Part shown: in pieces, positions 4,517-20,475 of the stretch
How the letters are laid out: each line of letters begins with the position of its first letter
How positions within the stretch are numbered: position 1 is the first letter of the stretch
NCBI GenBank assembly: GCA_963776895.1
Contig: CAVZOL010000001.1
Span: forward strand, 89,321 to 153,320
Source: Ignavibacteriota bacterium
GTDB taxonomy: Bacteria > Bacteroidota > Ignavibacteria > Palsa-1295
DNA length: 64,000 bases
Reading direction: 5' to 3'
Position numbers and translations under genes: made by a program
Notes under the pieces: generated by a model
The model's database searches: none
The model's input: only the letters and a program-made list of their open reading frames with translations
What the model was told of the DNA's origin: nothing

Positions 4517-6652
4517 TTGCAAGACGCACTCAAAAAATATTTCGGATTCGATTCATTTCGTCCGCTTCAGCGCGAGATCGTGGAGGCGGTGCTCGGCGGG
4601 AACGATGTTTTCGCGCTCATGCCGACGGGCGCGGGCAAATCGCTGTGCTTTCAACTTCCGGCGGTGCTGTTGCCGGGAATTACCATCGTTATTAGTCCGC
4701 TGATCGCGCTGATGAAAGATCAGGTGGATGGGCTGAACGCCGCCGGAATCCCTGCAACATTTCTTAATAGCTCGCTGAGTGGTCAAGAACTATATGCAAG
4801 AATACGAGATCTGAAAGAAGGGAAATATAAATTGCTTTATATCGCGCCGGAGCGATTTCCAACCACAGGTTTTCTAGAATTTCTTGAAGAGTTGACGATC
4901 TCGCTCTGCGTGGTAGATGAAGCGCATTGCATATCGGAGTGGGGCCATGATTTCCGCGCTGACTATCGCAATCTCCACGTTTTGCGTGAGCAGTTTCCGA
5001 ATGCGCCGATCATGGCGGTTACTGCGACAGCAACCGAGCAAGTTCTCACCGATATTCTCGAACAATTACACTTACGTGCGGATACAAGGATCTTTCGCGC
5101 GAGCTTCGACCGCAAGAATTTGATCTATCAGGTATGGCCCAAGCGTGGACCGCTTTCGCAGCTTACCGGCTATCTGGAACGCAAAAAAGGCGAATCGGGA
5201 ATTGTCTATTGCCTCAGCCGCGATGGAACGGAACGATTGGCCGCATCGCTCAAAGCGCATGGGCACAATGCGCTCCCCTATCATGCTGGATTGGAACGCA
5301 ATGTGCGCGCTAAAACGCAGGAACTCTTCGATCGCGATAAAGTAGATATTATCTGCGCGACCATTGCATTCGGTATGGGCATCGATAAGCCGAACGTGCG
5401 ATTCGTCGTGCATTACGATATTCCGAAGAACATTCCCAGCTATTATCAGGAAACCGGCCGCGCAGGACGCGATGGCCTTTCGAGCGATTGCATTCTGTTC
5501 TATGCCAGCGGCGACCGGCAGAAATACATGATGTTCTTCGAAGACAAAACGCCCGAAGAACGCGCGCGCGCCATTTCTGAACTGGATAAAGTCGTCGATC
5601 TTGCGGAACTAACTACGTGCCGGCGCAGAGCATTGCTCGGATATTTCGGCGAAGATTACCCAAGCGCGAATTGTGGAACCTGCGATAATTGTCTCTCCAA
5701 ACAAAATGCGGAATCCTTCGATGGCACGCGGCTGGCGCAGATGTTTCTTTCATGCGTAGTACGATTGAAGGAAAATTTCGGTCAGGCGCACGTTATCGAT
5801 GTGCTGAAAGGTTCTCGCGGGCAGAAGATTCAGGATTTCCGTCACCACGAACTGCCGACGTATGGCGTGGGCCACGAATATAAGAAAGAAGAATGGCGGC
5901 ATTTTGCCAATGAATTTCGGCGGCAGGGACTCATCGTGCAAGATCACGATCATTTTAGCGTGGTAAAAGTTACCCGCAAAGGGTGGGATGTGCTGAAGAA
6001 CGGATTACAGGTCACGCTATCGCGACCGAAGGAAATTGAGGGCGTTTCGCGCGAGGCAGTGGAACTTCCCGCGCCGAACATGAAGCTATTCGAGGAACTT
6101 CGCCAACTGCGCCGCACCATTGCCGAGCAGCAATCTGTGCCACCGTATGTTATCTTTAATGATTACACACTGAAGGAGATCGCGGCGCGGCTGCCGGTGG
6201 ATGGGCAGGAGTTCCTTGCCATTTCCGGCGTTGGCGAGGTGAAGGCACGGCAGTATGGAATGCAATTCTTAAGCGTGGTGAGAACGTTCCGAAAGGAAAA
6301 TCCCTCTATTGTGGGAACGGATGTTGTGCATCACGCGCCGCGCGAAGAAAAGGTTACAGATAGCGCGATCGATACGCTCGCATACTTCCGTAAAGGCTAC
6401 TCGCTCGCAAAAATTGCCGGCTTGCGAGGATTTTCCGTTAGCACCATCAGCAGTCATTTAGCCGCGCTGATCCAGAATGGGGATATTACATCTATTGATT
6501 CGTTAGTCGAGCCAACGAAGCTCGCACCCATTCGCGCTGCATTTCAGAAGGCTGGCTATGCCGCTCTGGGACCAGTGAAGGAGCAGTTAGGGGACGGTTT
6601 CACTTATGAGGAATTGCGTTTTGTGCGCGCGTTCGATGAACGCAAGAAGTGA
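4517..6652 (+). CDS. recQ: ATP-dependent DNA helicase RecQ (with HRDC and extra C-terminal HTH-like region)
   Basis: 711 aa with TTG start. FGFDSFRPLQ, PTGAGKSLCFQLPA (motif I), VVDEAHCISEWGHDFR (DEAH), zinc-binding CRRRxxLxYFGE...CGTCDNC, and an HRDC-like segment (LFEELRQLRRTIAEQQSVPPYVIF). Confidence 0.93.
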   Translation: MQDALKKYFGFDSFRPLQREIVEAVLGGNDVFALMPTGAGKSLCFQLPAVLLPGITIVISPLIALMKDQVDGLNAAGIPATFLNSSLSGQELYARIRDLKEGKYKLLYIAPERFPTTGFLEFLEELTISLCVVDEAHCISEWGHDFRADYRNLHVLREQFPNAPIMAVTATATEQVLTDILEQLHLRADTRIFRASFDRKNLIYQVWPKRGPLSQLTGYLERKKGESGIVYCLSRDGTERLAASLKAHGHNALPYHAGLERNVRAKTQELFDRDKVDIICATIAFGMGIDKPNVRFVVHYDIPKNIPSYYQETGRAGRDGLSSDCILFYASGDRQKYMMFFEDKTPEERARAISELDKVVDLAELTTCRRRALLGYFGEDYPSANCGTCDNCLSKQNAESFDGTRLAQMFLSCVVRLKENFGQAHVIDVLKGSRGQKIQDFRHHELPTYGVGHEYKKEEWRHFANEFRRQGLIVQDHDHFSVVKVTRKGWDVLKNGLQVTLSRPKEIEGVSREAVELPAPNMKLFEELRQLRRTIAEQQSVPPYVIFNDYTLKEIAARLPVDGQEFLAISGVGEVKARQYGMQFLSVVRTFRKENPSIVGTDVVHHAPREEKVTDSAIDTLAYFRKGYSLAKIAGLRGFSVSTISSHLAALIQNGDITSIDSLVEPTKLAPIRAAFQKAGYAALGPVKEQLGDGFTYEELRFVRAFDERKK

Positions 6653-6767: not shown

Positions 6768-7199
6768 ATGCAAAATCATGTCCTTTTTATTTGTGCCCAT
6801 AACAGCGCCCGAAGCCAGATCGCGGAGGAACTTATGCGCAGATCCTACGGCGATACCGTTCGCGTTGAAAGCGCGGGATTGAAAGAGGGAACCATCAGTC
6901 CGCTGGCGATCGAAGTGCTGAGAGAGGTGGGCATCGATATTGCGGAAAAAGAAACGCAGGATGCGTTCGAGCTATATCGACACGGCAGGTTGTTTTCTCA
7001 CGTCATTACGGTGTGCGATGACAGCAATAACGAGCACTGCCCCGTCTTTCCGGGCGGCGTGATCCGCCTGCATTGGAGCCTGCACGATCCCGCAACCTTC
7101 GAGGGAACCTGGGAGGAAAAACTGGAACGCACCCGTGAAGTGCGCGAAGAGATCCAACGAATGGTCGATGAATGGTATGTGGAGTATGGCGAAGGATAG
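6768..7199 (+). CDS. arsC: Arsenate reductase, low-molecular-weight phosphatase (thioredoxin-coupled) type
   Basis: 143 aa. CX5R P-loop (LFICAHNSARSQ) plus downstream Cys pair (VITVCDDSNNEHCP), typical of LMW-PTP-family ArsC. Confidence 0.75.
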   Translation: MQNHVLFICAHNSARSQIAEELMRRSYGDTVRVESAGLKEGTISPLAIEVLREVGIDIAEKETQDAFELYRHGRLFSHVITVCDDSNNEHCPVFPGGVIRLHWSLHDPATFEGTWEEKLERTREVREEIQRMVDEWYVEYGEG

Positions 7200-7262
7200 G
7201 ACGCATCGCCGACGATGCTTCTTCCATTGTGCGCGATGGGGCCAATCCGACAGACCCAGCCA
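7191..7262. repeat. Left copy of an approximately 70-nt direct repeat (REP-like, contains two small hairpins)
   Basis: gaaggataggacgcatcgccgacgatgcttcttccattgtgcgcgatgg... matches 7913-7984 at roughly 85% by eye. Overlaps the last codons of arsC. The window's final bases (ggacgcatcgg) begin the same motif. Confidence 0.7.
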
Positions 7263-7266
7263 CGAA

Positions 7267-7466
7267 GTGGCGAGGTACCCGCAGCCCAGGGTGGAGTGAA
7301 ACGGAACCCTGGGTTGTGATCGGCTTTTAAATTCCCAGCCCTGAAAAGGGCGATGTTTTTCCGCCGGGTTGACTCCGCCCTTTCAGGGCTATGAAAGTAA
7401 GTGTCCCACGTTTACCCAGGGTTCCACTTCGTTACACCCTGGGCTGCGGGTACCACGTCGCTCCGC
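7267..7466. repeat. Nested palindromic REP/MITE-like element of about 200 nt
   Basis: Outer arms gcgaggtacccgcagcccagggtg / caccctgggctgcgggtaccacgtcgc. Inner arms agccctgaaaagggcg / cgccctttcagggct. Confidence 0.75.
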
Positions 7467-7600
7467 GACTGAGAGGCCTTTCTACTATCACAATTACTTA
7501 TCAAGTTGGAGCAATTTAGTGCTTGCCTCAGAGACTGGCAACTGGTCACAATTTTGTGACCACATCTGATGAGGAAACTATGAGGTCGCAAATTTCGACC

Positions 7601-7792
7601 TCAAAAACCGAAGGCAAGCGAGGCCCGAATATCCTCTTCCGACAGTTCTGGAAAATCGCTGAGGATCTCCTCGTGCGACATACCGGCAGCAAGCCAGCCC
7701 AGCACATCCGCTACAGCAATACGCAGACCTCGAATGCACGGACGGCCTCCGCGCTTGCCGGGCTGAATAGTTACAATTGAATGGTAATCCAT
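7601..7792 (-). CDS. DUF433-family antitoxin-like protein (orphan)
   Basis: MDYHSIVTIQPGKRGGRPCIRGLRIAVADVLGWLAAGMSHEEILSDFPELSEEDIRASLAFGF matches the DUF433 pattern (GKPxIRGTRIxV...EILxxYPxLxxEDI). No intact PIN/DUF5615 partner lies downstream. Confidence 0.75.
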   Translation of the reverse strand: MDYHSIVTIQPGKRGGRPCIRGLRIAVADVLGWLAAGMSHEEILSDFPELSEEDIRASLAFGF

Positions 7793-7912
7793 GCCAAGAG
7801 AACACACATTACGAGACTCTTATTCCTTACCCCAAAACGAAAGATCGGGTTCCGTACCCATGACGATGAGGAAAGCTGACTTTCCCCCGTAGAGCCTGTC
7901 CTGAGTTTGCCG

Positions 7913-7984
7913 AAGGATCGGACGCATCGCCGACGATGCTTCTTCCATCGTGGGCGATGGAGCCAGCCCGACACCACCCGGAAG
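7913..7984. repeat. Right copy of the approximately 70-nt direct repeat
   Basis: gaaggatcggacgcatcgccgacgatgcttcttccatcgtgggcgatgg..., see 7191-7262. Confidence 0.7.
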
Positions 7985-8045: not shown

Positions 8046-10316
8046 TTAGAGTTTTAATGGCCAATCACTTAGCAGTCGTTCAAGTTTTGGCCTATCAATT
8101 AATTCGATCCGTTTGTTCATCGCGTAAGCCTGACTTGGAGGAGAAAAGCGACCTGATGTAACTAAAACTCCTCTTGTAACAGAATGGTCGTTTGTGATAA
8201 CACCCCATAATTCCCTTACCTTATCTTCACCTACGACCCGTTGTGGATAATGCTTGCATTGAATAACGATTATCTCAGTTGCACCAGTTGATGTTTGTCT
8301 GCTTGCTAAAATATCGATACCATGATCATGACTACGTGGTGTTGCCCGAACCCTATACCCCATCCGCTCATACAGACCTTCTATCAAGTCCTCAAACTCT
8401 TTCGGGTCTAAGGCATCTATGTTCTGTGCTTGTCCAGAGTTTACCTTATTTGTCTTTTTTGCCGGTCGCTTCAAGCCAAAAAGGCCAAGCATTTCATCTT
8501 CTGTCAGGCGAGCCTCCAATCCCTCATCACTCAAGTCTCCAATCACACGATCAAATAATGCTTGCTTCTTTTGAAGTATATCCTGAATTTTTTCTTCAAT
8601 TGTATTTCTGATGATGAGGCTACGAACGAACACTGTTGGTTCAGCTTGGCCTACGCGAGCTACACGACCAGTTGCCTGATTAGTTACTGCCGGATTCCAC
8701 CAATGGTCAAAATGAAATACATAATTAGCCCTCGTTAAAGTGAGTCCAACCCCTCCGGCTCGCAATGACATTAGCAGAATTTTGTTTTTCTCATTAGCTT
8801 GGAAATCAGCGATAATTCGATCCCGCTCATTTGATGAGAGTCTTCCGTCAAATACTTGAGGTTTGAAACTATTTAGTCTTGGTTCAATTTTTCTTAACGT
8901 TGCGTTAGGATACTGCGAAAATACAAGAGCTTTATGCTCTTGGTCTGTAACCTCTTTCAAGGCTGTCTCAAGATAATCCAATTTGCTGCTTTCACCGCTA
9001 AGATCGTCAAAATTGCAAATTTTCTTGAGAGAAGTTATCAATTGAAGTACATGGACAAGACTTACTTCGTCTTCAAAATCCTTAAGACGAATAATTCCCT
9101 CTTTTTCCGCCCTTTCATATGCTTCTTGCTGTTTTGGTAGGAGGTCTAAGAAGGTTTCGTCATATTGAATTGCGGGTAAACCTGGAAGACCCTCAGCCTT
9201 TCGACGGAGGAAATAAGGTTCAATTTTGGACATTAAGCCTTTCTCACTTTCAGCATCTTTGCGACTAAGAAGTCCGGGTTTTATAAAGCCGTAAATGCTC
9301 ACAATGTCGCCCAAATGATTCTCAACGGGCGTTCCAGAAAGACCCCACCGAAATTTAGATGTTATCTGGCGACAAGCTTTAGAAACCTCTGCATTGGCAT
9401 TCTTTATCCTCTGAATCTCATCCAAAATTGTTACGTCAAACTTGGTTGTTAACCACGGGTATGTTTCGGCATCTCGACTGAAAGACTCAAAATTTGTTAA
9501 ATACACATGTGCGCGAGTTTCCCAAAATGCTTGGCGGCCAGAGCCAGTACTTCGAATGACAATAGTTCTTAGCTCAGGAGCCCATTTTTGTAAATGATCA
9601 TCCCATGTCGCAATAAGTGACTTTGGGCAAAGTATTAGGGTAGTATTAGCAGAGCCTTGCTGGAATAAAATTTTTAGAGCGACGATTGTTTGAACGGTTT
9701 TCCCAAGCCCCATATCGTCAGCCAGAAGCGCCGCTCCATTCTTAACTAAGAACTCAATTCCATTATACTGCCAAGGTTTTAGCTCATGTGGAAGAAATGG
9801 ATTCTTCTGTGGCCCTCCAAGAAATTTGGGCTGAAGGAGTGGAAAAATCAAATCGAATACATTGAAGGGTATAGCTCGCCCATCCTTCGGTTGAGGACGA
9901 TTAGCCTTAGGCGTAGAGGGAATACTCGCACGAGCCTCGCCACCAGTAGTTTTGTCAAAAATTGCTAAAGGGATCTGCCCGGTCTTAGCGGAATAATTCT
10001 TTCCTTCTAATTCCGGTCGACCAATTGTTAAGTTTATACTTTCTATAGGTGGCGGACACAACACCGAAAGTAGGTCGAGAAAAATGTCTTCTGTTGGCGT
10101 AACCTCATTTAAAAGCTGAATCTCATCTAATAAAAAACATGCGAGCATTGGCAAAGGCTCGGCAAGTGGTAACTGAAGTTTTTCGACTACTATTGAGCTC
10201 GTTCGGGTTAGTTGATTGAGAAGTCCAGCGCTCGAATGGTCCGGCATAGCGATGGCAGAGAGCCTAATCGCTGTATTGTATCGAAAACCTCGAAGAAGGT
10301 AATTAGAAGTTCTCAT
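8046..10316 (-). CDS. SNF2-family helicase fused to a C-terminal Mrr-type (PD-(D/E)xK) restriction endonuclease domain; N-terminal ~190 aa unassigned
   Basis: Helicase motifs LADDMGLGKT (I), ILDEIQRIKN (II), LSGTPVEN (III), QATGRVARVGQ (VI). C-terminus HDHGIDILA...EIIVIQCKHY...VLVTSGRFS is Mrr_cat-like. The ATG at 10314-10316 overlaps the upstream stop by 1 nt (TGATG). Confidence 0.85.
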   Translation of the reverse strand: MRTSNYLLRGFRYNTAIRLSAIAMPDHSSAGLLNQLTRTSSIVVEKLQLPLAEPLPMLACFLLDEIQLLNEVTPTEDIFLDLLSVLCPPPIESINLTIGRPELEGKNYSAKTGQIPLAIFDKTTGGEARASIPSTPKANRPQPKDGRAIPFNVFDLIFPLLQPKFLGGPQKNPFLPHELKPWQYNGIEFLVKNGAALLADDMGLGKTVQTIVALKILFQQGSANTTLILCPKSLIATWDDHLQKWAPELRTIVIRSTGSGRQAFWETRAHVYLTNFESFSRDAETYPWLTTKFDVTILDEIQRIKNANAEVSKACRQITSKFRWGLSGTPVENHLGDIVSIYGFIKPGLLSRKDAESEKGLMSKIEPYFLRRKAEGLPGLPAIQYDETFLDLLPKQQEAYERAEKEGIIRLKDFEDEVSLVHVLQLITSLKKICNFDDLSGESSKLDYLETALKEVTDQEHKALVFSQYPNATLRKIEPRLNSFKPQVFDGRLSSNERDRIIADFQANEKNKILLMSLRAGGVGLTLTRANYVFHFDHWWNPAVTNQATGRVARVGQAEPTVFVRSLIIRNTIEEKIQDILQKKQALFDRVIGDLSDEGLEARLTEDEMLGLFGLKRPAKKTNKVNSGQAQNIDALDPKEFEDLIEGLYERMGYRVRATPRSHDHGIDILASRQTSTGATEIIVIQCKHYPQRVVGEDKVRELWGVITNDHSVTRGVLVTSGRFSPPSQAYAMNKRIELIDRPKLERLLSDWPLKL

Positions 10317-10846
10317 CAACGATATTTCGCATCAGCTTCAGCAAGTGATTTGAGCGCGGTTTGCACACGAGCAAATGGTTCGAGGGGATCGAAGCTGAGG
10401 CTTCGGAGAATTTCCATAGCAATCGGAAGGTCTGGATTATTACCGATTTGAGGCTTTACTACCATTGGCTCATATTCACCGCCCTGACTTTCGAGCTTTT
10501 CTGAGTTGGTTGTCGCATCACCACGCTCAATCACACCGGAAGCTTGCCCAATCCACACCACAGGCTTGTCCAAGTTCCCACGAATCGCTAGCATAAAAGT
10601 TTCCTTTACAAGAATAATTGCGGGCTTGGTCTTGATTTCTCTTAGGAGTGGCCTACCGCATAACTCTACTCCGATGTGAGGTTGAAGCATTCCGCCATAA
10701 AGTTGGCGTTGAATCCCGGTAGGCTTAACACTGTGTGTACAGCGAAACTCTTGCGGAACGCCTGTTGAGTCAGTTACTAAAATAGCTCCTATAAAACCAT
10801 CGGTAGAGGTTTGCTCAAGCGTCAAAAAACCAATATTACATTCCAT
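10316..10846 (-). CDS. Hypothetical 176-aa protein, first gene of the SNF2-Mrr cassette
   Basis: Intact ORF MECNIGFLTLEQTSTDGFIGAILVTD...; I recognise no motif. Its stop overlaps the SNF2-Mrr start, which implies translational coupling. Confidence 0.6.
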   Translation of the reverse strand: MECNIGFLTLEQTSTDGFIGAILVTDSTGVPQEFRCTHSVKPTGIQRQLYGGMLQPHIGVELCGRPLLREIKTKPAIILVKETFMLAIRGNLDKPVVWIGQASGVIERGDATTNSEKLESQGGEYEPMVVKPQIGNNPDLPIAMEILRSLSFDPLEPFARVQTALKSLAEADAKYR

Positions 10847-11027
10847 GAGTACGTAAGTAATTTAAGGGATAATGAATTAGCCTCGAACTTCTGCAACTCT
10901 AAGCAGGTTCCCCCTTCGTCACTCTTCTAAATTCGATATTTCCTAAAGGATCGCCACTGTTAGGTAACTCAAATTCGCCATAGGCACCAATTTCTCAAAG
11001 AAATTTTCATCTATTTTCACGAAAGGC

Positions 11028-11318
11028 TTGCTTTCCTCATTTTTATGTCGTATCTTGTGGTTGCTTTGATGGGCACCTATATCAATTAAGAATTAAAAAG
11101 TAAGAATTAAGAATGGGGGAAATAAGTAAGAAGTGAGAGTTAAGAAGTAAGAAATACGGGGCGTGGAGAGTTCATTGACAATTGATGCGGCGCTGGTTTT
11201 CGGAGTGAACCAGTTCTTTGGGAAAGCAAAATGTGAATAACTTTTGCGACAAATGGCGAAAATGGCTCGGAATCGAGGGTGGGTCGGGAACTCACAAGAA
11301 AGAAAAACGGCACCTATT
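11028..11318 (+). ncRNA. Copy A of a promoter-bearing conserved non-coding element (candidate sRNA/leader-like RNA)
   Basis: TTGCTT, 17 nt, TATCTT, 10 nt, TGATGGGCACC, then heptamer repeats (taagaat, gtaagaa) and a roughly 160-nt core about 90% identical to copy C (58294-58586, minus). The 9-nt GGCACCTAT occurs at both ends (11072 and 11309). No same-strand CDS lies downstream. Confidence 0.45.
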
Positions 11319-11375
11319 GCTGGAAGACAACAAAAGGGGGCAGGCACATCTCCAGCAATGCTGATGAGCTTCAGC

Positions 11376-11583
11376 TTACTTGGCTTCTGCGATGGGTTTT
11401 CCGCTGGGGTATGCAAGCCCCAACTCGAGATAAATATCGGCAAGATTGCGGGTATTATAATCTTTGCGGGAAATTTGCTTGCCGGTGACCGAAGAGGCGG
11501 TTCAGTTCGCGTACTTTTTCTTCTTGCGCACGCTCAAAACCATTGGTTAAGGCGTGCTCCATTTTTTCTTTTAGTGATTCCAT
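11376..11583 (-). pseudogene. Small hypothetical gene (~70 aa) apparently split by a 1-nt indel
   Basis: MESLKEKMEHALTNGFERAQEEKVRELNRLFGH (stops at 11455) continues in another frame as GKQISRKDYNTRNLADIYLELGLAYPSGKPIAEAK*. The junction is at ggtcaccggc. Confidence 0.25.
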
Positions 11584-11656
11584 GTTAGAGAGTCAGGATA
11601 ACGCCGGGAGGCGAGTGTTCGTTCGATTTTAAGAGATGATGCTCGAAATGTTATAA

Positions 11657-13408: not shown

Positions 13409-13786
13409 TTATTCGCTTACCAGCGCGAGGATATTTCCATCGGGGTCTTTGAACCACGCGGCTTTCATATTTCCTTCGCCGTGAATATCGCCATTTCGTG
13501 TCATTCCCGGCATGTCGTAATGCTCGAAAGTAACGCCTTTCGCTTTGAGCGATTGCACGGTCTTTTCGAGTTCGTTACCGACCTTAATGGTCAGTGCAGT
13601 AGCCTGATTCGTTCCGGCGAATTGCGAGCGATACACAAAGATGGTCGAGTTCCCGCTTTGGAAGCTGACACCTTCCTCGCCACCCTTATCGACTTTTTTC
13701 CAGCCGAGCGTTCCTTCATAGAATTTCCCGGCGGCATCAACATCTTTCACTGCAATGGTTGCAATAGCATCTTTATTTCCTAACAT
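13409..13786 (-). CDS. VOC (glyoxalase/bleomycin-resistance) family protein
   Basis: 125 aa. IAVKDVDAAGKFYEGTLGW...AAWFKDPDGNILAL is the typical VOC pattern. Confidence 0.75.
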   Translation of the reverse strand: MLGNKDAIATIAVKDVDAAGKFYEGTLGWKKVDKGGEEGVSFQSGNSTIFVYRSQFAGTNQATALTIKVGNELEKTVQSLKAKGVTFEHYDMPGMTRNGDIHGEGNMKAAWFKDPDGNILALVSE

Positions 13787-13816
13787 ATTTTTCCTCCTGT
13801 TACCAATGTGAGATTT

Positions 13817-14245
13817 TTATTTTTTTGGATAGGTATAGTTCACCATCCATTGAACGTCAAATTTATCGGTGAGCATCCCCCAGTATGCACCCCAGGGAGC
13901 ATCCGCGATCGGCGCGCCAATCTTTCCACCGGCAGAGAGAGCATTGAAAAGCTTGTCCGCTTCTTCTTTGCTATCAGCTTCGAGCGAAAGTGTGAGATTA
14001 TTTCCCAGCCTCAGTGTGTGCCCTTGCGACTCCAGCATGTCGGTCGCCATCATCGTATTTCCGCCGATAGGCAGCGCGATGTGCATAATCTTCGTGGCTT
14101 CAACAGGAGACATTTTATCGGCAATTCCAGGAAGGTCTTTGAATCGCATGATGGTCGAGAAATCACCACCGAATACAGATTTGTAGAAGTTGAACGCTTC
14201 TTCGGTGTTGCCCTGATAGTTAATATATGGATTGAGTTTTGCCAT
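13817..14245 (-). CDS. PhnB/YjdN-like VOC-fold protein
   Basis: 142 aa. PYINYQGNTEEAFNFYKSVFGG...HIALPIGG...WGAYWGMLTDKFDVQWMVN is the PhnB-like signature. Confidence 0.7.
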   Translation of the reverse strand: MAKLNPYINYQGNTEEAFNFYKSVFGGDFSTIMRFKDLPGIADKMSPVEATKIMHIALPIGGNTMMATDMLESQGHTLRLGNNLTLSLEADSKEEADKLFNALSAGGKIGAPIADAPWGAYWGMLTDKFDVQWMVNYTYPKK

Positions 14246-14294
14246 GGTTATTGTAATGAGTTAATTAATGGAAAGTCCGATAATCATTCTATGA

Positions 14295-15158
14295 TTATCC
14301 TTGATTATATGCTTGTTCTAAACCAGCAATGTCGAGTTTATTCATTTTCAGCATCGCATTCATAACTTGCCCAGCTTTCTTGCGGTCTTTGTCGCCTAAT
14401 AGTCTGCCGAGCGCGGTGGGAACGATCTGCCACGAAACACCGAATTTATCTTGCAGCCAGCCACAGCGGTCGGTGCGGCCGCCTTCGGAAAGTTTGTCCC
14501 AAAAGTTATCGACCTCCGCTTGCGAATCGCAATTTACGAACATGGAAATTCCGGGCGTGAAAGGATAATCCATTGGAGTTCCGCTATCCATTGCGACGAA
14601 GGGTTGTCCATTGAGTGAGAAGGTTAAAAATTTTATTTGGCCTTCAGGTCCGGTTTCGCCAGGCTCATAACGAGCGATAAAAGCAACGCTCGAATTTGGA
14701 AAATGTGAGGTATAGAATGTTATCGCTTCTTCTGCTTTTCCTTGCTGTGCTCCGCAAAAAAGGAAAGAAGGGGTGACCAGGCTCGGCTCTTTAGAAAGCG
14801 AAAGCTGCCAATTCACGCCAAATTTATCTTCGATCCATCCATATTTTTCGTTCCATGGATATTTTTGTAGTTCCATACGAACCGTGCCGCCATCCGAAAG
14901 CTTCTTCCACGCATCATCTATTTCTGATTCCGTCTGGAAGTAAGCCGTAAAGGAAATTGCAAGCGTTGGATGATATTGTGGACCGCCATTGAATAAAATA
15001 AACTCACTGCCGGCAAGATCGACCGTTACACCCATTGGCTTTCCGCCGGGGCCGGGCATTGTGCTGAGTGTTTTCGAATTCTTGAAAACGGAGGTATAGA
15101 GATTGGCAGCTTCCTCAGCCTGATCGTTAAACCAGATGAATGTTTGAATTTTTTGCAT
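14295..15158 (-). CDS. Tandem double-domain protein of the PF06983-type (3-demethylubiquinone-9 3-methyltransferase-domain / VOC-like) family
   Basis: Two internal repeats, each ending ...GWxxDKFGVxWQ. Start chosen at MQKIQTFIWFNDQAEEAANLY by analogy with the neighbouring paralog. Confidence 0.7.
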   Translation of the reverse strand: MQKIQTFIWFNDQAEEAANLYTSVFKNSKTLSTMPGPGGKPMGVTVDLAGSEFILFNGGPQYHPTLAISFTAYFQTESEIDDAWKKLSDGGTVRMELQKYPWNEKYGWIEDKFGVNWQLSLSKEPSLVTPSFLFCGAQQGKAEEAITFYTSHFPNSSVAFIARYEPGETGPEGQIKFLTFSLNGQPFVAMDSGTPMDYPFTPGISMFVNCDSQAEVDNFWDKLSEGGRTDRCGWLQDKFGVSWQIVPTALGRLLGDKDRKKAGQVMNAMLKMNKLDIAGLEQAYNQG

Positions 15159-15211
15159 ACGTTTTATTTGTATTTTAGATAATTTGTCGGTCAAGGTGAA
15201 AAGATAATATC

Positions 15212-15700
15212 TCAGCCATTATTGAATGCATTTTCGAGTGCCTTGATATCGAGCTTTTTCATTCCAAGCATCGCTTTCATGACCCGCCCGGCTTTTACGG
15301 AGTCCTTATCACGCTGCATCTCGAGAAGCTGTTTCGGCGTGACCTGCCACGACACGCCGAACTTATCCTTGAGCCATCCACATTGGCTCTCCTCACCGCC
15401 GTTTGCAGTAAGGCCATACCAGTAATGGTCGATCTCCTCCTGCGTGCTGCACTCGATCATGAGTGAGACCGATTCATTGAACTTGAATATCGGCCCTCCG
15501 TTGAGGGCCGAGAACCGTTCCCCATCAAGCTCGAATTCGACGAAGAGTACGCTGCCTTCTGGCTGGCCGGACGCCTGTGCGGCTGCCGCATCGGTCAGGA
15601 GCACGCTCGTTATCTTCGAATTCTTGAAGAGGCTGACGTAAAAGTTTGCAGCCTCTTCAGCTTGTGTGTCTAACCACAGACATGGTGTGATTTTTTGCAT
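15212..15700 (-). CDS. PF06983-type VOC-like protein (single domain paralog)
   Basis: MQKITPCLWLDTQAEEAANFYVSLFKNSKI...CGWLKDKFGVSWQV. Confidence 0.7.
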   Translation of the reverse strand: MQKITPCLWLDTQAEEAANFYVSLFKNSKITSVLLTDAAAAQASGQPEGSVLFVEFELDGERFSALNGGPIFKFNESVSLMIECSTQEEIDHYWYGLTANGGEESQCGWLKDKFGVSWQVTPKQLLEMQRDKDSVKAGRVMKAMLGMKKLDIKALENAFNNG

Positions 15701-15712
15701 CGCCTTTTTTGG

Positions 15713-16108
15713 TTACCCCATTGGGTTTGGCTGCAACATGCTGACGCGGTTGCCTTCCGTATCGAGGAAGGATACCCACAATCCTACGCCTGGAATTGGC
15801 ATCGGCTCGCCGATGATCTTTCCACCTGCGGCTGTAACCTTTTTAATATGATCATGCAGATCATCCACCGCGATCACGACCGATGGAGCGTTGGAAACGG
15901 GGTCTTCCGTGCGCGGGTAAAAACCTCCGTTGATCGCACCCGGATCCTTCGGGCGTCCGTTTGCATCAGCCTCGGTGGTCGTTGCCAGCACGTAATTGCC
16001 CATCTCTGCGCCTAACTGCTGTGTTTGCCAGCCGAATGTGTTCGAATAAAAATCGCTCATGCGTTTGGTATCTTTTGCCGGCATTTCGAAATGTACTACT
16101 GAGTTCAT
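15713..16108 (-). CDS. VOC (glyoxalase) family protein
   Basis: 131 aa. VVHFEMPAKDTKRMSDFYSNTFGW...GLWVSFLDTEGNRVSMLQ. Confidence 0.7.
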   Translation of the reverse strand: MNSVVHFEMPAKDTKRMSDFYSNTFGWQTQQLGAEMGNYVLATTTEADANGRPKDPGAINGGFYPRTEDPVSNAPSVVIAVDDLHDHIKKVTAAGGKIIGEPMPIPGVGLWVSFLDTEGNRVSMLQPNPMG

Positions 16109-16154
16109 TGTGTTTCTCCTTGAGTAAAATGAAGTTGTTTTTAAAAAATGCGGC

Positions 16155-16619
16155 TTATTTCTTTCTTGTGAATGTCACACTTAAGTCCGTTTCCCACGTT
16201 GAGCCATCGCGCGACAACTCGCCATGCCAAGCGATGGTATTGCCATCATCGCTGAACGAGCCAGTCATACGCTGTGAAAAATCGAGCGATTCTCGCCACA
16301 TCTTCCAAACGCCGCGCGCTAAATTCATCTGATATATTCTGGCAATACCCCGCTCATCTGTGTAAAGCATGGAACATGGTTCGACCGCGTCATCATGGCC
16401 GATGATACTGAAACCGGTGGGAATTCCCTGACCGGGATTCCAAACAAAATGCCAGACCAGCAGCGCGCCTTCCCTCAGCCATTCGAAAGACGAATGCCCA
16501 TGCAGAGTGGATGGAAGAGCGGGGTGGGTTCCCACCATAGTCCACTCACCAACCAAGACATCAAACTGTTTGAGAGTGCGAGCCGGTTGTGGCGTCTGTC
16601 GTTCGGAATCTTTAATCAT
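16155..16619 (-). CDS. Hypothetical small beta-rich protein (DUF1579/lipocalin-like suspected)
   Basis: Intact ORF in operon context. Start at MIKDSERQ is a guess. The family assignment is weak. Confidence 0.4.
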   Translation of the reverse strand: MIKDSERQTPQPARTLKQFDVLVGEWTMVGTHPALPSTLHGHSSFEWLREGALLVWHFVWNPGQGIPTGFSIIGHDDAVEPCSMLYTDERGIARIYQMNLARGVWKMWRESLDFSQRMTGSFSDDGNTIAWHGELSRDGSTWETDLSVTFTRKK

Positions 16620-16711
16620 CTTTATTTTCCTTTTATTATTGATTGCTGAGTTACGATGCAAACGAGTTCAAAAAAAAATCATTAGCATCATCATGCTTTC
16701 CTTCGCTATTC

Positions 16712-17321
16712 TCACAACGTTCCGGTTTTGACATCACCGGCCCGCTTGTAGCTTGCTACGACGATTCCCGTTGGTGAAGTCTTACTCTCAATAAGCTCGA
16801 ACCCGGCAGCAATGGTGCCATCGCCAAAGAGCTTCTTACCCGATCCGAGCGTAACGGGAAAAGTTTTGAGCCAGAGTTCATCCACCAGATCGTGTTTCAG
16901 GAGCGTTTGTATTAAGTTACCGCTTCCATGCACTTGTAGCTCTGGCCCATCACCGGACTTGAGTTTTTTGATCTCCTCAACTACGTTGTCACCTAAACGC
17001 ACCGTCTTTTCCCAATAGGAATTGAGCGGCCGATGCGTGGCCACGTATTTCGTCGCGCTATTGAGGCTTGCGGCGATCGGGCCGATATTATTTTCGGGAA
17101 GCGGCCAGTATGCGGCGAAAATATCGTACGTCTTTTCGGCCAAGCAGCAGGTCGAAACCACTGCTCATCTGTGTAACCATCGTTTCATGCGCAAATTCAT
17201 CCCAGTGCGGCGCGGTCCATCCGCCATATTTAAAGTCGCCGCTTGTGTCTTCTTCCTGCCCGCCCGGAGCCTGCATGACTCCATCCAGCGATACAAACGA
17301 TAAAACGATCAGTTTTCTCAT
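16712..17321 (-). pseudogene. RibD_C-type dihydrofolate-reductase-like protein, split by a 1-nt homopolymer indel
   Basis: MRKLIVLSFVSLDGVMQAPGG...FDLLLGRK (frame a) continues as TYDIFAAYWP...LQVHGSGNLIQTLL (frame b). Removing one T from the T4 run at 17133-17136 restores LLLGRKTYDIFAAYWP. Confidence 0.8.
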
Positions 17322-17366
17322 GGTTTTTGTATTATTTTTTAATGTTTTTTTCGTGACTTCTTGCTA

Positions 17367-17855
17367 TTACTCCTTCACGATCGGCACCCAAATTTCGATA
17401 TGGACATTATTCATATCCATCTTCGATGCAAAATAATGTTCGAAGTCGAGTGATAATTTTGGATCCATCGAGTAACCTGACTTTGGCATCCACTCGCCAT
17501 AAATAAATCCGAAAAAAGCGTGAATGCCACCAACGGCGCCATTGTATGTGAATACAGCGTAGTTTGCAGCAGCAATCTCCTTGCCAACCATACCAGCCGG
17601 AATGTTTGAAAGATCGCTCACTTGGTAGCCGGCAATGTAATAATATTTAGGAAAGCCGCCTTTGTTCATATCGAAATCGCGTGAGTAATCCTCAATACCG
17701 TATGCATCGGGTAGAATCGCGTTCGGAATCTCTGTGTTTCGCTTCGAGAATTCGGCCCATGCCTCGCGGATGGCAGGAATGCCGCTGCCCGTGTATCGTT
17801 CGATCCCGACGATCTTAAATGCTTCTTTTGTGCGAAAAGATGGTTCGTTGCTCAT
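17367..17855 (-). CDS. GyrI-like small-molecule-binding domain protein (AraC effector-binding fold)
   Basis: 162 aa. AFKIVGIERYTG...AWAEFSKR...YAVFTYNG...FEHY is the pattern of GyrI-like/SbmC-type domains. Confidence 0.6.
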   Translation of the reverse strand: MSNEPSFRTKEAFKIVGIERYTGSGIPAIREAWAEFSKRNTEIPNAILPDAYGIEDYSRDFDMNKGGFPKYYYIAGYQVSDLSNIPAGMVGKEIAAANYAVFTYNGAVGGIHAFFGFIYGEWMPKSGYSMDPKLSLDFEHYFASKMDMNNVHIEIWVPIVKE

Positions 17856-17863
17856 TTAAAATA

Positions 17864-18172
17864 TTAAAAAATAGTAGTGGAGGAGCCTACTAACGTAAGC
17901 AGTTCTGTTTTTGGTGGTGCTTCAGGCCCACTGGCTTTAAGCTCCTGCTGAAATTGGATGAAGGCTGGTAATTGTAAGAGCACTTTCTCATCCTCATCGG
18001 AATTAAAAAATGCGGTGTGAATGAATGTTTTGCCGTCCGCTCCGAGGCAAGAATTATAGTTAATGCCTGGATTATTGATGGCTTGCAGATCAGCCATGAC
18101 TTTCTTAATGTTGCCCTGATTGTGTTCAGAGTACTCTGGCTTCGTCGTATACGTTACCTTGACTATTTTCAT
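17864..18172 (-). CDS. Small hypothetical protein (ABM/ferredoxin-like fold suspected)
   Basis: 102-aa ORF packed between paralog genes. The family call is weak. Confidence 0.35.
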   Translation of the reverse strand: MKIVKVTYTTKPEYSEHNQGNIKKVMADLQAINNPGINYNSCLGADGKTFIHTAFFNSDEDEKVLLQLPAFIQFQQELKASGPEAPPKTELLTLVGSSTTIF

Positions 18173-18203
18173 TTTGTTTGATGTTTAGTGATGAATTGTC
18201 TTT

Positions 18204-18770
18204 TTAATCGTTTTTTGGTTTGTAACTTAAAACAATTTTGCCGCCAGAATATAACTTTGCTTGTATGGGAGAAAATTTCCGTATTCCGTTAAGTGAATTA
18301 AAAATAGTCATACCGTTACTGATAGCTGTTGGATTTACAATAAGATGATACTCATCAATAAGCCCTTCCTTTATTAGTGATGAAACAAAACCTGCGCCGC
18401 CAAAAACAAGAATATCGTTACCGTTCTGTTTTTTTAAGTTACCGATCTCTTCAGCAAGATCTCCTTTTGCCAGAGTGGTGTTGTTCCACGATGACTTGTC
18501 AAGTGTTTTAGAAAAAACAACTTTTGGAATGTCAACTATTTTTTTTGCGAATGGATGAGTAGGATTTTCGTCAGCTGTATTCTCCCAATATTTTATAATG
18601 CTTTCTGCCGTTTTTCTGCCAAGTAAAAGAGTGTCAGAGGTATCAAGCATAGAACTCATAAATGCTATCAATTCGTCATCTGGATTCCAGGTCATCCAGT
18701 CACTTTTTCCATTTGGCTGTGCAACATACCCGTTAATGGTCATTTGCATTTGTAACTTTAATTTTCTCAT
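18204..18770 (-). CDS. RibD_C-type dihydrofolate-reductase-like protein
   Basis: MRKLKLQMQMTINGYVAQPNGKSDWM...LLLGRKTAES...ILVFGGAGFVSSLIKEGLIDEYHLIVNP. Confidence 0.75.
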   Translation of the reverse strand: MRKLKLQMQMTINGYVAQPNGKSDWMTWNPDDELIAFMSSMLDTSDTLLLGRKTAESIIKYWENTADENPTHPFAKKIVDIPKVVFSKTLDKSSWNNTTLAKGDLAEEIGNLKKQNGNDILVFGGAGFVSSLIKEGLIDEYHLIVNPTAISNGMTIFNSLNGIRKFSPIQAKLYSGGKIVLSYKPKND

Positions 18771-18803
18771 GGTCTATTGTGCTTTTTACGTAGTGACTCA
18801 GTT

Positions 18804-19361
18804 CTATCTTATGGGCTGATAGTTTAAAACAACGATGCCACATTCGAAGGGCTGCGACTTGACCAGTTTCAGATTTGTGCGCCCATTGAAAATTCTCAGT
18901 CCGCTTCCGATTGCTGAGGGGTTAACAAAAAGGTGAAAGTCGTCAACGAGACCTGCCTCGATCAGATTCGAAACAAATGTCGCGCCTCCGTACGCAATAA
19001 TGTCTTTGCCCGGTTGAGCTTTGAGTTTAGCAATCTCATCGACCATCTTTCCGTTATTTACATCGGTATTAGCCCATTCGGATTTTTTCAGCGAGTGTGA
19101 AAAAACAATTTTGGATGTGTCGCGCATTTTGTGGGCGAACCAATCTGCGGTTTCAGGATTTGCGACGCGCGACTCCCACGCAGGAATGAATCCTTCCGCG
19201 AGTTCACGACCGAGTACGATCAAGTCAACCGGCTCGGTCAATCGAGTAATATAATTCTTGGCTTCATCGTCGATGTTCCACACCATCCAGTCCATTTCTC
19301 CATTCGGTCCACTTACGAATCCATCGAGCGATACCTGCATTTGTAATTTTAATTTTCTCAT
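18804..19361 (-). CDS. RibD_C-type dihydrofolate-reductase-like protein (paralog)
   Basis: MRKLKLQMQVSLDGFVSGPNGEMDWM...IVLGRELAEG...IIAYGGATFVSNLIEAGLVDDFHLFVNP. Confidence 0.75.
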   Translation of the reverse strand: MRKLKLQMQVSLDGFVSGPNGEMDWMVWNIDDEAKNYITRLTEPVDLIVLGRELAEGFIPAWESRVANPETADWFAHKMRDTSKIVFSHSLKKSEWANTDVNNGKMVDEIAKLKAQPGKDIIAYGGATFVSNLIEAGLVDDFHLFVNPSAIGSGLRIFNGRTNLKLVKSQPFECGIVVLNYQPIR

Positions 19362-19509
19362 GGTCTTTGATTTTATCCTTTTTGATTGTTATGACAAGTG
19401 ATTCAGTTAATGAGTACAAAACTACAGAAATAATTAATGGCCGCGTGAGGCGTAAAAACGGCATTCCAAGGGGTTGATTATGACAGATTTATTTCGTATT
19501 TTTGTATTT

Positions 19510-20475
19510 ATGAAAAAAATAGCAATTCTTGTACCTCGCGGAGCGGCCTCGGTGGGATGTATCGAAGGTTCATTCATAGGCTTTTCCCGCTCAAATGAAG
19601 TTTTGGCTAATATGGGCAAGGAGCCTATTTTTGAGATGAGAATGGTCGGCATCGATAACGAACTTCAAACATACAACCGATTCATCACCATTCGCCCCGA
19701 TTTGACGATCGCGGATTCTTACAAACCAGATCTTATTATCATTCCAGCAGTCAATGGAGAGATGAATGAGGTTGTCGCTATAAACAGCGAATTCTTCCCA
19801 TGGATCGTAGACCACTACAAGAATGGAGCAGAAGTTGCCAGCCTCTGTGTCGGCTCGTTCTTGCTTGCGGCCACGGGACTCGTCGATGGGAAAAGATGTG
19901 CGACGCATTGGCTGTCCCAAAACGAGTTCCGCAAAATGTTCCCAGAGGTAAATCTCGTGTCCGAAAAAATCATTACTGATGAAAAGGGAATTTATTCCAG
20001 CGGCGGTGCTAATTCCTTCTGGAACCTGGTGATCTATTTGATAGATAAATATGCCGGAAGGGAAGTGGCAATTGCCTGTGCTAAAATTTATGAAATAGAA
20101 ATAGACCGCGATTCGCAGTCGCCATTCATCATGTTTACTGGCCAAAAAGATCATGAAGATGAACAGATCAAGGATGCTCAGTCTTTCATCGAAAGCAATT
20201 TCCATAAGAAGATAACCATTGAGGAATTAGCTGCAATGTCCGCAATGGGCCGCCGGACATTCGAACGCCGTTTCAAAAAGGCAACATCGAATACCGTTGT
20301 GGAGTATATGCAACGCGTGAAAATCGAAGCGGCGAAAAAAAGCCTCGAACATAATCGCAAGAATGTTGCCGAAGTGATGTATGATGTCGGCTATACCGAT
20401 ACGAAAGCATTCCGAACGACATTTAAGAGGATTACGGGTTTATCGCCGATCGATTATCGGAATAAGTATGCGTAG
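19510..20475 (+). CDS. GlxA-family transcriptional regulator (DJ-1/PfpI-like N-domain + AraC HTH)
   Basis: MKKIAILVPRGA...ASLCVGSFLLAATGLVDGKRCATHW (DJ-1-like), then the C-terminal AraC HTH (TIEELAAMSAMGRRTFERRFKK...VGYTDTKAFRTTFKRITGLSP). It is the only plus-strand gene in the block. Confidence 0.8.
   Translation: MKKIAILVPRGAASVGCIEGSFIGFSRSNEVLANMGKEPIFEMRMVGIDNELQTYNRFITIRPDLTIADSYKPDLIIIPAVNGEMNEVVAINSEFFPWIVDHYKNGAEVASLCVGSFLLAATGLVDGKRCATHWLSQNEFRKMFPEVNLVSEKIITDEKGIYSSGGANSFWNLVIYLIDKYAGREVAIACAKIYEIEIDRDSQSPFIMFTGQKDHEDEQIKDAQSFIESNFHKKITIEELAAMSAMGRRTFERRFKKATSNTVVEYMQRVKIEAAKKSLEHNRKNVAEVMYDVGYTDTKAFRTTFKRITGLSPIDYRNKYA

Follow-up and report, generated by a model that had tools for sequence, protein, structure and literature searches.

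The DNA analyzed here, called the window below, is a stretch of 64,000 nucleotides (nt) from an Ignavibacteriota bacterium (GenBank assembly GCA_963776895.1, contig CAVZOL010000001.1, forward-strand positions 89,321 to 153,320), and positions are counted from its first letter. Its minus strand carries two adjacent genes, one encoding a small protein of 176 amino acids (aa) with an ATG start (10316-10846) and, directly downstream, one encoding a 756-aa fusion of an SNF2 ATPase with an Mrr-type nuclease (8046-10316, with the ATG at 10316 and the stop codon at 8046-8048). An earlier sequence-only reading of this DNA had called both open reading frames (ORFs) and proposed the pair as a candidate defence system. 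Both minus-strand ORFs were recovered as called, together with the TGATG junction (10314-10318, minus strand) at which the small-gene stop codon and the SNF2-Mrr start codon overlap by 1 nt. In the junction sequence, ...CGT TGA TGA GAA..., the A of the TGA stop doubles as the A of the next ATG, which is consistent with translational coupling of the two genes. The ORFs are not a product of chance, because many homologs exist for both proteins, and a single frameshifted gene was rejected since the two-ORF layout is kept, with varied junctions, in 37 non-redundant loci.

The large protein: an SNF2 motor with a C-terminal Mrr-type nuclease

Pfam placed SNF2-rel_dom (PF00176) at aa 183-438 of the large protein (E 4.5e-40; 138 bits, cut-off 24.9), Helicase_C (PF00271) at aa 445-556 (E 1.8e-20; 73.7 bits) and Mrr_cat (PF04471) at aa 633-749 (E 1.5e-30; 106 bits, cut-off 21), the last of which agrees with the C-terminal Mrr-type PD-(D/E)xK module claimed earlier. 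The motifs that had been quoted for both modules are all present in the translation, namely DDMGLGKT (aa 200-207), DEIQRIKN (aa 299-306) and QATGRVARVGQ (aa 547-557) for the ATPase as well as HDHGIDILA (aa 663-671), EIIVIQCK (aa 681-688) and VTSGRFS (aa 719-725) for the nuclease. The ATPase core (aa 150-593; 8538-9869, minus strand, as are all features of the pair given below) is delimited by Pfam, invariant residues and a confident model, and contains the Walker A sequence DDMGLGKT (9696-9719), the DEIQ box (9399-9422) and motif VI QATGRVARVGQ (8646-8678). In an alignment of 34 homologs, residues G203, G205, K206, D299, E300, Q302, Q547, R551 and R554 are invariant, and the features that define the SNF2 family (both lobes, Walker A GxGKT, DExx box and motif VI arginines) are all found. 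A linker (aa 594-632; 8421-8537), partly of low confidence, with a predicted local distance difference test score (pLDDT) below 50 at residues 594-597 and 612-629, leads to the Mrr_cat nuclease domain (aa 633-749; 8070-8420), for which Pfam, conserved residues and a confident model likewise agree. In the 34-homolog alignment D664 and C687 are invariant while D668, Q686 and K688 are conserved in at least 90%, and the domain carries the D...(D/E/Q)xK catalytic signature of Mrr_cat, with D664/D668 (8304-8330) and Q686-C687-K688 (8253-8276) as candidate catalytic residues. The full-length AlphaFold2 model is confident over the ATPase core (~150-593) and the Mrr domain (~630-756). The closest solved sequence is the Sulfolobus SWI2/SNF2 core 1z63 (9e-61), together with eukaryotic remodellers, and the structural matches are generic SNF2 cores that include ISW1, INO80 and CSB.

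The N-terminus had been left unassigned by the sequence-only reading. This held insofar as no domain match was obtained over about 180 aa, but the region is not a folded domain and is instead predicted to be disordered with short conserved motifs. In the full-length model pLDDT is below 50 across residues 1-10, 20-84 and 86-146; a folded N-terminal domain was therefore rejected, and a fold search of residues 1-146 would not be meaningful. Among the short motifs of these 146 aa (9879-10316) is GK.Y at aa 105-108, and directly before the ATPase core lies FDLIFP(I/L)LQP (aa 154-163; 9828-9857), in which P163 is invariant and F154, P159 and L161 are conserved in at least 90% (alignment A2). Pfam found no reader domain of the E. 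coli Mrr kind on the large protein, whose N-terminus is disordered and whose middle is the SNF2 motor. Most relatives carry a zinc-knuckle-like CxHGLxKxWCxxC motif in the N-terminal region (equivalent to aa ~110-150 of the window protein), and some SNF2-Mrr relatives have an extra CxxC...CxxC insert (both in alignment A2); both Cys motifs are missing through loss from the window protein and from P0015 and P0016, which are its nearest relatives, all three having a Pro/Lys/Arg-rich linker at this place.

The small protein: a new family with a predicted RNase-H-like fold

No motif had been recognised in the 176-aa protein, and in line with this it gave no match in Pfam, NCBIfam, PADLOC, PHROGs or the PDB sequences, the last also when searched with a profile built from its family. 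A word-indexed search proved under-sensitive and returned just 13 homologs, and family size was taken from an exhaustive profile search over 1.84 billion representatives, which yielded 1,610 clusters (50% identity) at E <= 1e-3 and 1,319 at E <= 1e-10; among the matches listed, most are 140-230 aa long. The protein is acidic (isoelectric point (pI) 5.5), as is the family with a median pI of 5.4 and 95% of members below pI 7. From an alignment of 146 members and the structural model, a conserved core was delimited at aa 17-67 (10646-10798; strand 2, strand 3, a loop and the first helix) with the pattern G..GA.L.TD..G.P.EFR.T.P.KPT..Q..LYG..L. Within it P31, E33, F34, T37, P42, Q46 and G51 are conserved at 96-100%, Y50 at 91% and D26 at 82%, and L67 is also near-invariant. 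A C-terminal motif, D..EPF.R (aa 153-160; 10367-10390), stands out in the same sequences (D153 82%, E156 94%, F158 92%, R160 97%).

The AlphaFold2 model of the small protein, built from a 13-sequence alignment, reached a pLDDT of 90.2 and a predicted template modelling score of 0.88. Its elements as assigned by DSSP follow the order b1-b2-b3-aA-b4-aB-b5, as in the RNase-H-like fold. Foldseek against the PDB gave 33 structural matches at E <= 1e-3; the top 24 were all endonuclease V (EndoV) chains (E 2e-5 to 2e-4, query TM score 0.44-0.60), and the next ranks were taken by the C-terminal half of UvrC and then by the PIWI domains of short Argonautes (SPARDA, SPARTA, MpAgo). The best match in the viral library was an EndoV from a giant virus (E 1.2e-3), with weaker matches (E > 1e-3) to RuvC, RNase H and terminase nuclease domains. 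On the basis of this model we are confident in predicting an RNase-H-like fold of the branch that comprises EndoV, the UvrC C-terminal domain and PIWI. Pfam detected neither MID nor PIWI, and the 176 aa make up a single RNase-H-like domain.

Although EndoV (Nfi) and the UvrC C-terminal domain are the best structural matches and share the strand-helix order, the small protein differs from EndoV in being about 50 aa shorter, in its acidity, in the absence of conserved acids and in the lack of any sequence relation. Neither the Pfam search (no PF04493 match) nor an hhalign comparison with the EndoV encoded in locus L112 (probability 0.1%) revealed kinship, and descent from EndoV or from any other solved structure, as far as it would be visible by sequence, was rejected because the PDB profile search and hhalign came back empty. 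RNase-H-like nucleases have their catalytic acids in strand 1, helix A and strand 4. Across the 146 members no D or E is conserved in these three elements, from which we infer that cleavage at the canonical site is improbable for the small protein. Conservation peaks in the block from E33 to G51, which covers strand 3, the next loop and the start of helix A; presumably this is where EndoV has its PYIP wedge and catalytic glutamate, a placement based on topology and not on a superposition.

Conservation and co-evolution of the gene pair

Loci of the pair were gathered by conserved-peptide-pattern scans of GTDB species genomes (35) and JGI metagenomes (61). Full-length matches to the small protein with an identity of 35% or more and no less than 1.2 kb of sequence behind the gene were taken as close homologs, and an SNF2 gene was found directly downstream, within 28 nt, for 38 of these 39; where at least 3.2 kb was available, SNF2 was present in 26 of 27 loci and a detectable Mrr domain in 21 of 27. 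Viewed from the SNF2 side, all ten relatives looked up (35-51% identity, including P0100 in L001) have a gene for a 174-193-aa protein immediately upstream, which matched the small protein by tblastn or the family profile in eight instances and was judged by size and position alone in L112 and L113. Conservation of the gene pair, which had been proposed as a check of the earlier reading, was thus seen from both sides. The spacing between the genes never exceeds 28 nt in 37 non-redundant pairs, and the pairwise distances of the small proteins correlate with those of the SNF2 cores at r = 0.915, a value reached by none of 2000 permutations. All-against-all neighbour clustering of 20 loci brought up no third conserved gene, so that the two genes alone are conserved, as the claim of a self-contained unit had implied. 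Judged by these comparisons of sequences, the pair is a self-contained, co-evolving and unnamed two-gene module.

The sole close homolog without an adjacent SNF2 gene (39% identity; L018:9971-12168) is followed by uncharacterised proteins of 282 and 188 aa, and further downstream by a pair of very large ORFs, of 1242 and 1112 aa, on the minus strand, one of which has a weak SNF2-like match. In L004 and L009 the neighbours of the pair include ABC/SMC-type ATPases (AAA_15/21 and SMC-like) and a DNA methylase (N6_N4), which were rejected as components since they recur in no other locus.

While the small gene is constant, the C-terminal effector of its SNF2 partner varies between Mrr, HEPN (Swt1-like) and none. 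The partner in L069 ends in a Swt1-like HEPN domain (HEPN_Swt1), and the SNF2 proteins of L019, L020, L024, L072 and Thermodesulfovibrio yellowstonii stop shortly after Helicase_C; an SNF2-HEPN fusion was mentioned in 2013 (PMC3710099). Because the effector can be exchanged for a HEPN RNase or be absent, the small protein and the SNF2 motor would form the conserved heart of the system, and from the sequences compared the constant part comprises the small protein, the N-terminal tail and the motor, with an exchangeable nuclease. As the small gene is kept beside SNF2 genes that lack a nuclease or encode HEPN, its partner would be the motor or the N-terminus and not the Mrr domain, and the suggestion that it is an immunity factor against the nuclease is disfavoured for the same reason. 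SbcCD as a nuclease acting in trans for the nuclease-less variants was rejected, since it was seen in T. yellowstonii only.

Comparison with named systems

The composition could not be assigned to any named system in the sequence-only reading, and database comparison led to the same result: PADLOC 2.0.0 matched the large protein alone and all NCBIfam scores were far below their cut-offs. With PADLOC the ZorD models ranked best (E 1e-77 to 3e-78), followed by DpdE, while DrmD and HmaA were weaker. The NCBIfam scores amounted to 143.8 bits for ZorD NF041790 (cut-off 1500), 78-87 for DrmD (610-950), 58 for DpdE (500) and 43 for RapA (576). ZorA/B/C, HmaB/C or Drm partners were neither found in the window flanks nor recurrent in the 20 clustered loci, and membership in Zorya, Hma, DISARM or Dpd was rejected on account of the absent partners and because every NCBIfam equivalog score was below cut-off. 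The housekeeping-type RecQ of the window (4517-6652; RQC, HRDC and HTH_40 domains) matches PADLOC DpdF at E 1e-219 and PsyrT at 6e-104, which indicates that single-gene PADLOC matches are generic here. The literature found by full-text search covers HmaA, ZorD and SNF2-HEPN fusions, and the small partner is described in none of it.

HmaA of Halomonas meridiana is an SNF2 helicase with a C-terminal NOV_C PD-(D/E)xK nuclease that alone protects E. coli from T4, for which its nuclease residues are required (PMC11232893). Like the large protein it joins an SNF2 motor to a C-terminal PD-(D/E)xK nuclease, but it has ~1,180 aa and its nuclease is NOV_C/DUF3883 and not Mrr_cat (NOV_C gave no match here). 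The partners in the Hma system are a DUF1156 methylase and a DUF499 ATPase, neither of which is encoded in the window flanks, no small RNase-H-fold partner exists in Hma, and the PADLOC HmaA match of the large protein is partial (E 4e-17). Hma genes occur near the pair merely as separate neighbours (a complete Hma system in L113, HmaA with DUF1156 in L017). ZorD of type I Zorya has been reported with an Mrr-like nuclease domain (PMC11890865), and the PADLOC models describe ZorD as a SWI2/SNF2 helicase with an Mrr-like nuclease. Both catalytic modules are present in the same order in the large protein, of which aa 178-753 are aligned by PDLC00631. In contrast, the partners of ZorD are the MotAB-like ZorA/ZorB and ZorC, all of them missing from the window flanks, and ZorD has a structured N-terminus of ~440 aa where the large protein has its 146-aa disordered tail; the PADLOC ZorD models align from profile position ~440 onward. 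The solved ZorD structure 8qy7 matches the large protein at 4e-35 over aa 264-588, worse than the archaeal 1z63. DrmD of DISARM and DpdE of Dpd have a homologous SNF2 core, but are without a fused Mrr nuclease and have other partners.

In DdmDE of Vibrio cholerae a catalytically inactive Argonaute, DdmE, is combined with the helicase-nuclease DdmD. The logic proposed for the pair is similar in that two genes would provide a non-cutting sensor of RNase-H/PIWI fold and an SF2 helicase with a PD-(D/E)xK nuclease. DdmE, however, is a full-length prokaryotic Argonaute with MID and PIWI that uses DNA guides, whereas the small protein has 176 aa and lacks MID, which makes guide loading unlikely, and DdmD is not an SNF2 ATPase and showed no detectable homology with the pair. 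McrBC follows the principle of a nucleoside triphosphate-driven translocase, a PD-(D/E)xK cutter and a separate reader. With such type IV enzymes the pair has in common Mrr_cat (shared with Mrr), the absence of a cognate methyltransferase and the motor-cutter-reader layout of McrBC, but its motor is SNF2 and not a GTP-specific AAA+ protein, and its putative reader is a separate protein of RNase-H fold. By analogy, the pair would work most like HmaA and also resemble ZorD, and its design would be akin to those of DdmDE and McrBC.

Distribution and genomic neighbours

The module is patchily distributed over at least nine bacterial phyla or candidate phyla, nearly always in metagenome-assembled genomes (MAGs). 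Its carriers include Chloroflexota, Nitrospirota, Planctomycetota, WOR-3, Acidobacteriota, Firmicutes (Syntrophomonas) and delta- and gamma-proteobacteria among others, and the pair is also present in the T. yellowstonii assembly GCA_027925485.1. Neighbours typical of defence or mobile elements (restriction-modification (RM), CRISPR, Hma, toxin-antitoxin (TA), transposase, ATPase) were found in about 11 of 22 inspected loci, a small and partly hand-picked sample with no background rate, and several loci of the pair sit in defence islands. Apart from the Hma genes mentioned above, these neighbours comprise a CRISPR array with cas6, cas2 and cas1 (T. yellowstonii), HsdM and a type IIG RM enzyme, MazEF-, HigB- and HicA-type TA genes, transposases, and stand-alone HNH, Mrr and PD-(D/E)xK nucleases. 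Repair genes are represented by ruvA and recQ (window), EndoV, AP endonuclease and PF01035 methyltransferase (L112), SbcCD (T. yellowstonii) and an AGOG fusion (L113). Housekeeping neighbours were seen in five loci sampled regardless of content.

The T. yellowstonii locus (L107:1-13899; BSDX01000001.1, 1,668,923-1,682,821) encodes a 190-aa small protein and a nuclease-less SNF2 protein of 632 aa. On one side it is bordered by a CRISPR array (36-nt repeat GTAGGAAACAAGACCTCATTTAAAAGGGATTGCGAC), cas6 and a bAvd gene, and on the other by SbcD/SbcC-like genes, cas2 and cas1. In L112 a genuine endonuclease V gene (PF04493; 7134-7892) is located upstream of the small gene, in divergent orientation and at a distance of ~540 nt, and the genes for AP endonuclease 2 (AP_endonuc_2) and a methylguanine methyltransferase (PF01035) are found on the downstream side, an arrangement seen in this locus only. 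In three unrelated loci the gene of an ADP-ribose-removing enzyme is located close upstream of the small gene, directly adjacent for Macro in L022 (9353-9880) and ADP-ribosylglycohydrolase in L018 (9017-9787), and separated by one other gene for Macro in L002 (5316-5849). The three enzymes are mutually dissimilar in sequence, and their proximity may be coincidence or a hint at the DNA mark that is sensed.

Remote homologs adjacent to fliA

Remote homologs of the small protein (25-34% identity) share the core motif and the C-terminal D..EP..R but never adjoin SNF2. Upstream sequence sufficed for 37 remote or partial matches, of which 23 are immediately preceded by a FliA/WhiG sigma-28 gene, an assignment supported by 237-250 bits (cut-off 189.6), and in most fliA-linked loci a conserved 265-285-aa protein without a family match follows the small gene. 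These loci (L034-L045 and L091-L104, e.g. L044:9159-11352) derive mainly from MAGs of Melainabacteria and Gastranaerophilales and encode a small protein of ~184 aa. The SNF2-linked and fliA-linked subfamilies are 25-34% identical and their contexts are never mixed. A Planctomycetota subgroup of the remote homologs adjoins an RlmN-like gene.

The fliA context suggests a flagellar-regulon role for this subfamily of the RNase-H fold and shows that the fold serves as a binding module of general use. Considered along with the acidic pI, it leaves room for a protein-sensing or adaptor role of the small protein. Homologs without a link to SNF2-Mrr genes, which the sequence-only reading had regarded as speaking against its proposal, were accordingly encountered in part, namely as the remote homologs in fliA operons, while close homologs are SNF2-linked in all but one case.

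Sequence context of the pair in the window

The window flanks encode RuvA, RecQ, a low-molecular-weight protein tyrosine phosphatase (LMW-PTP), a DUF433 protein and a sigma-54 activator. GC content at third codon positions (GC3) is 0.35-0.40 in the pair and 0.55-0.62 in the flanking ruvA, recQ, LMW-PTP and sigma-54 activator genes. The downstream flank (7182-7973), at the 3' end of the LMW-PTP gene, contains two direct copies of a 71-nt sequence (7182-7252 and 7903-7973; 89% identical, unique in the window), between which lie a DUF433 gene for 63 aa (7601-7792, minus strand) and a 58-nt inverted repeat (7257-7314 and 7414-7471). The first of the direct copies begins in the last 18 nt of the LMW-PTP gene and overlaps its stop codon, and the duplication resembles the att-type scar of an element that had integrated here. 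Low GC3 and the bracketing repeat suggest that the pair was acquired horizontally.

The small gene is preceded by 810 nt of non-coding DNA (10847-11656), the presumed promoter region, which holds AT-rich repeats. Four copies of an AT-rich ~18-nt motif (AAGTAAGAA-type) are located at 11081-11159, 235-310 nt before the start codon, and this array could bind a regulator. A promoter scan just 5' of the small-gene ATG gave no convincing sigma-70 or sigma-54 site, matches in the sigma-70 and terminator scans were at chance level, and an Rfam scan of the leader found nothing beyond a distant tRNA-Lys. Control by the adjacent sigma-54 activator was rejected because the small gene has no sigma-54 promoter 5' of it and matches to such sites occur across the window about as often as chance predicts. 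Elsewhere in the window (13409-20205, minus strand) at least ten small same-strand genes, several of them paralogous, encode glyoxalase, PhnB-like (3-dmu-9_3-mt), RibD_C and GyrI/Cass2 proteins; an integron cassette array was rejected for this region (13.4-20.2 kb), which has paralogous genes but no attC-like repeats.

Interpretation

We read the pair as a horizontally mobile two-gene helicase-nuclease module that would act in anti-phage or anti-plasmid defence through a non-catalytic sensor or adaptor subunit, an interpretation drawn from sequence to which we give about an even chance. Being co-transcribed and translationally coupled, the two proteins would be made in matched amounts. The small protein would serve as a non-catalytic subunit whose predicted RNase-H fold resembles endonuclease V and PIWI, and would dock on the disordered, motif-bearing N-terminal tail of the large protein to provide specificity or gating. 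The favoured cue would be an unusual DNA feature (a modified or damaged base, nick, flap or hybrid), with sensing of a phage protein as the alternative. We place a DNA cue only slightly above a protein cue, on the grounds that every close structural relative binds distorted DNA or RNA and that the most conserved element would, judged by topology, sit at the position of the DNA-probing wedge of EndoV. Recognition would then license the SNF2 motor to translocate on double-stranded DNA with ATP, as is expected of the family, and the C-terminal Mrr-type PD-(D/E)xK domain, with its catalytic residues intact, would cut the DNA. Since the module lacks a methyltransferase, it would fall to the sensor, and not to host methylation, to tell self from non-self, as in modification-dependent type IV restriction.

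Several observations weigh against this interpretation. Acidity such as that of the family is uncommon in proteins that bind DNA on their own and speaks for a role in protein binding. Placing the conserved loop at the EndoV wedge is a lead taken from topology and not from a superposition, and hhalign gives no sequence relation to a genuine EndoV. The family was not found in phage, plasmid and IMG/VR viral collections, and carriage on mobile elements was rejected as these and PHROGs gave no match. Housekeeping or DNA-repair genes surround the pair in roughly every second locus inspected, and the same motif in fliA operons implies that the ancestral function of the family was not specific to defence. 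A more far-reaching version of the defence interpretation, which we regard as possible but doubtful, would see a new family of dead EndoV/PIWI-like sensors that, bound to the N-terminal tail of the SNF2 motor, reads a chemical or structural mark on invading DNA (a hypermodified, deaminated or ADP-ribosylated base, a hybrid or a flap) and licenses translocation together with a swappable effector (Mrr DNase, HEPN RNase or none), the same fold being re-used in the fliA-linked operon of Melainabacteria.

The small protein's closest structural relatives, EndoV and the UvrC nuclease domain, are both repair enzymes, repair is likewise the task of some SNF2 proteins, among them CSB and Rad54, SNF2 cores are among the structural matches, and repair genes adjoin the pair in the window, L112, T. 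yellowstonii and L113, with Macro or ADP-ribosylglycohydrolase genes upstream in three loci. All this would fit accessory processing of DNA damage, in which an EndoV-like subunit finds lesions in the cell's own DNA that SNF2 and Mrr incise or clear. No repair neighbour is conserved between loci, however, TA, RM, CRISPR, Hma and transposase neighbours occur too, and the patchy distribution, suggestive of horizontal gene transfer, and the atypical GC3 do not fit a repair function; a free Mrr-type double-strand nuclease on a motor would be hazardous, and a repair role sits badly with relatives in which a HEPN RNase takes the place of the DNase. We consider this explanation unlikely. The order of the genes, with a small acidic protein just upstream and translationally coupled, is the classic one of antitoxin and toxin, and tight co-divergence of both proteins as well as the frequency of TA modules among the neighbours would suit a toxic SNF2-Mrr nuclease held by an inhibitor that is released or degraded on stress or infection. 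Yet conservation of the small gene is just as strong upstream of SNF2 genes that lack a nuclease (L019, L020, L024, L072 and T. yellowstonii) or, in one case, encode HEPN, its homologs in fliA operons are not accompanied by a toxin, and the globular RNase-H fold is not of the antitoxin type that combines a DNA-binding domain with a disordered tail, so that a toxin-antitoxin function appears decidedly improbable.

The remote homologs that directly follow the FliA/WhiG sigma-28 gene in a conserved three-gene cluster, the acidic family that suggests protein binding, and RapA, a bacterial SNF2 protein that binds RNA polymerase and to which NCBIfam gave a weak match, raise another alternative, a RapA- or Mfd-like remodeller of transcription whose small subunit would connect the SNF2 motor with either RNA polymerase or a sigma factor and for which defence would be secondary. 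The RapA match is far below its cut-off (43 bits against 576), the SNF2- and fliA-linked subfamilies, at 25-34% identity, never mix their contexts, and fused Mrr or HEPN domains and settings in defence islands would be unexpected for a housekeeping transcription factor; we judge this to be very improbable. Finally, the best PADLOC matches to ZorD (one spanning SNF2 and Mrr) and DpdE, with weaker ones to DrmD and HmaA, could point to an orphan or degenerate piece of type I Zorya, DISARM, Dpd or Hma that has lost its partners. This explanation is largely refuted and retains hardly any probability, given NCBIfam equivalog scores far below cut-off, the absence of the ~440-aa ZorD N-terminal region, the lack of Zor, Hma and Drm partners in the window flanks or recurring in the 20 loci, and a large protein with a dedicated co-evolving partner of its own.

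The novelty of the pair, as far as sequences and models indicate, would lie in the partner family and its fold, in the tight co-evolution and in the testable copy of T. yellowstonii, which lies within a CRISPR-Cas locus of an assembly assigned to a named species and thereby offers an experimental handle. The partner constitutes a new protein family of about 1,600 clusters (50% identity), outside Pfam, NCBIfam, PADLOC and PHROGs, that would put an RNase-H-like fold to a non-cutting use. A defence function of the pair, if real, would add a widespread and compact two-gene helicase-nuclease system that resides almost always in MAGs of poorly catalogued uncultured phyla. Should the reading of the small protein as a dead sensor be true, the pair would belong to a new class of restriction or abortive-infection systems that depend on ATP and have no methylase, and a dead EndoV/PIWI-like sensor joined to a motor-nuclease would link the Argonaute-type sensing of DdmDE and the short prokaryotic Argonautes with the SNF2-nuclease effectors of ZorD and HmaA.

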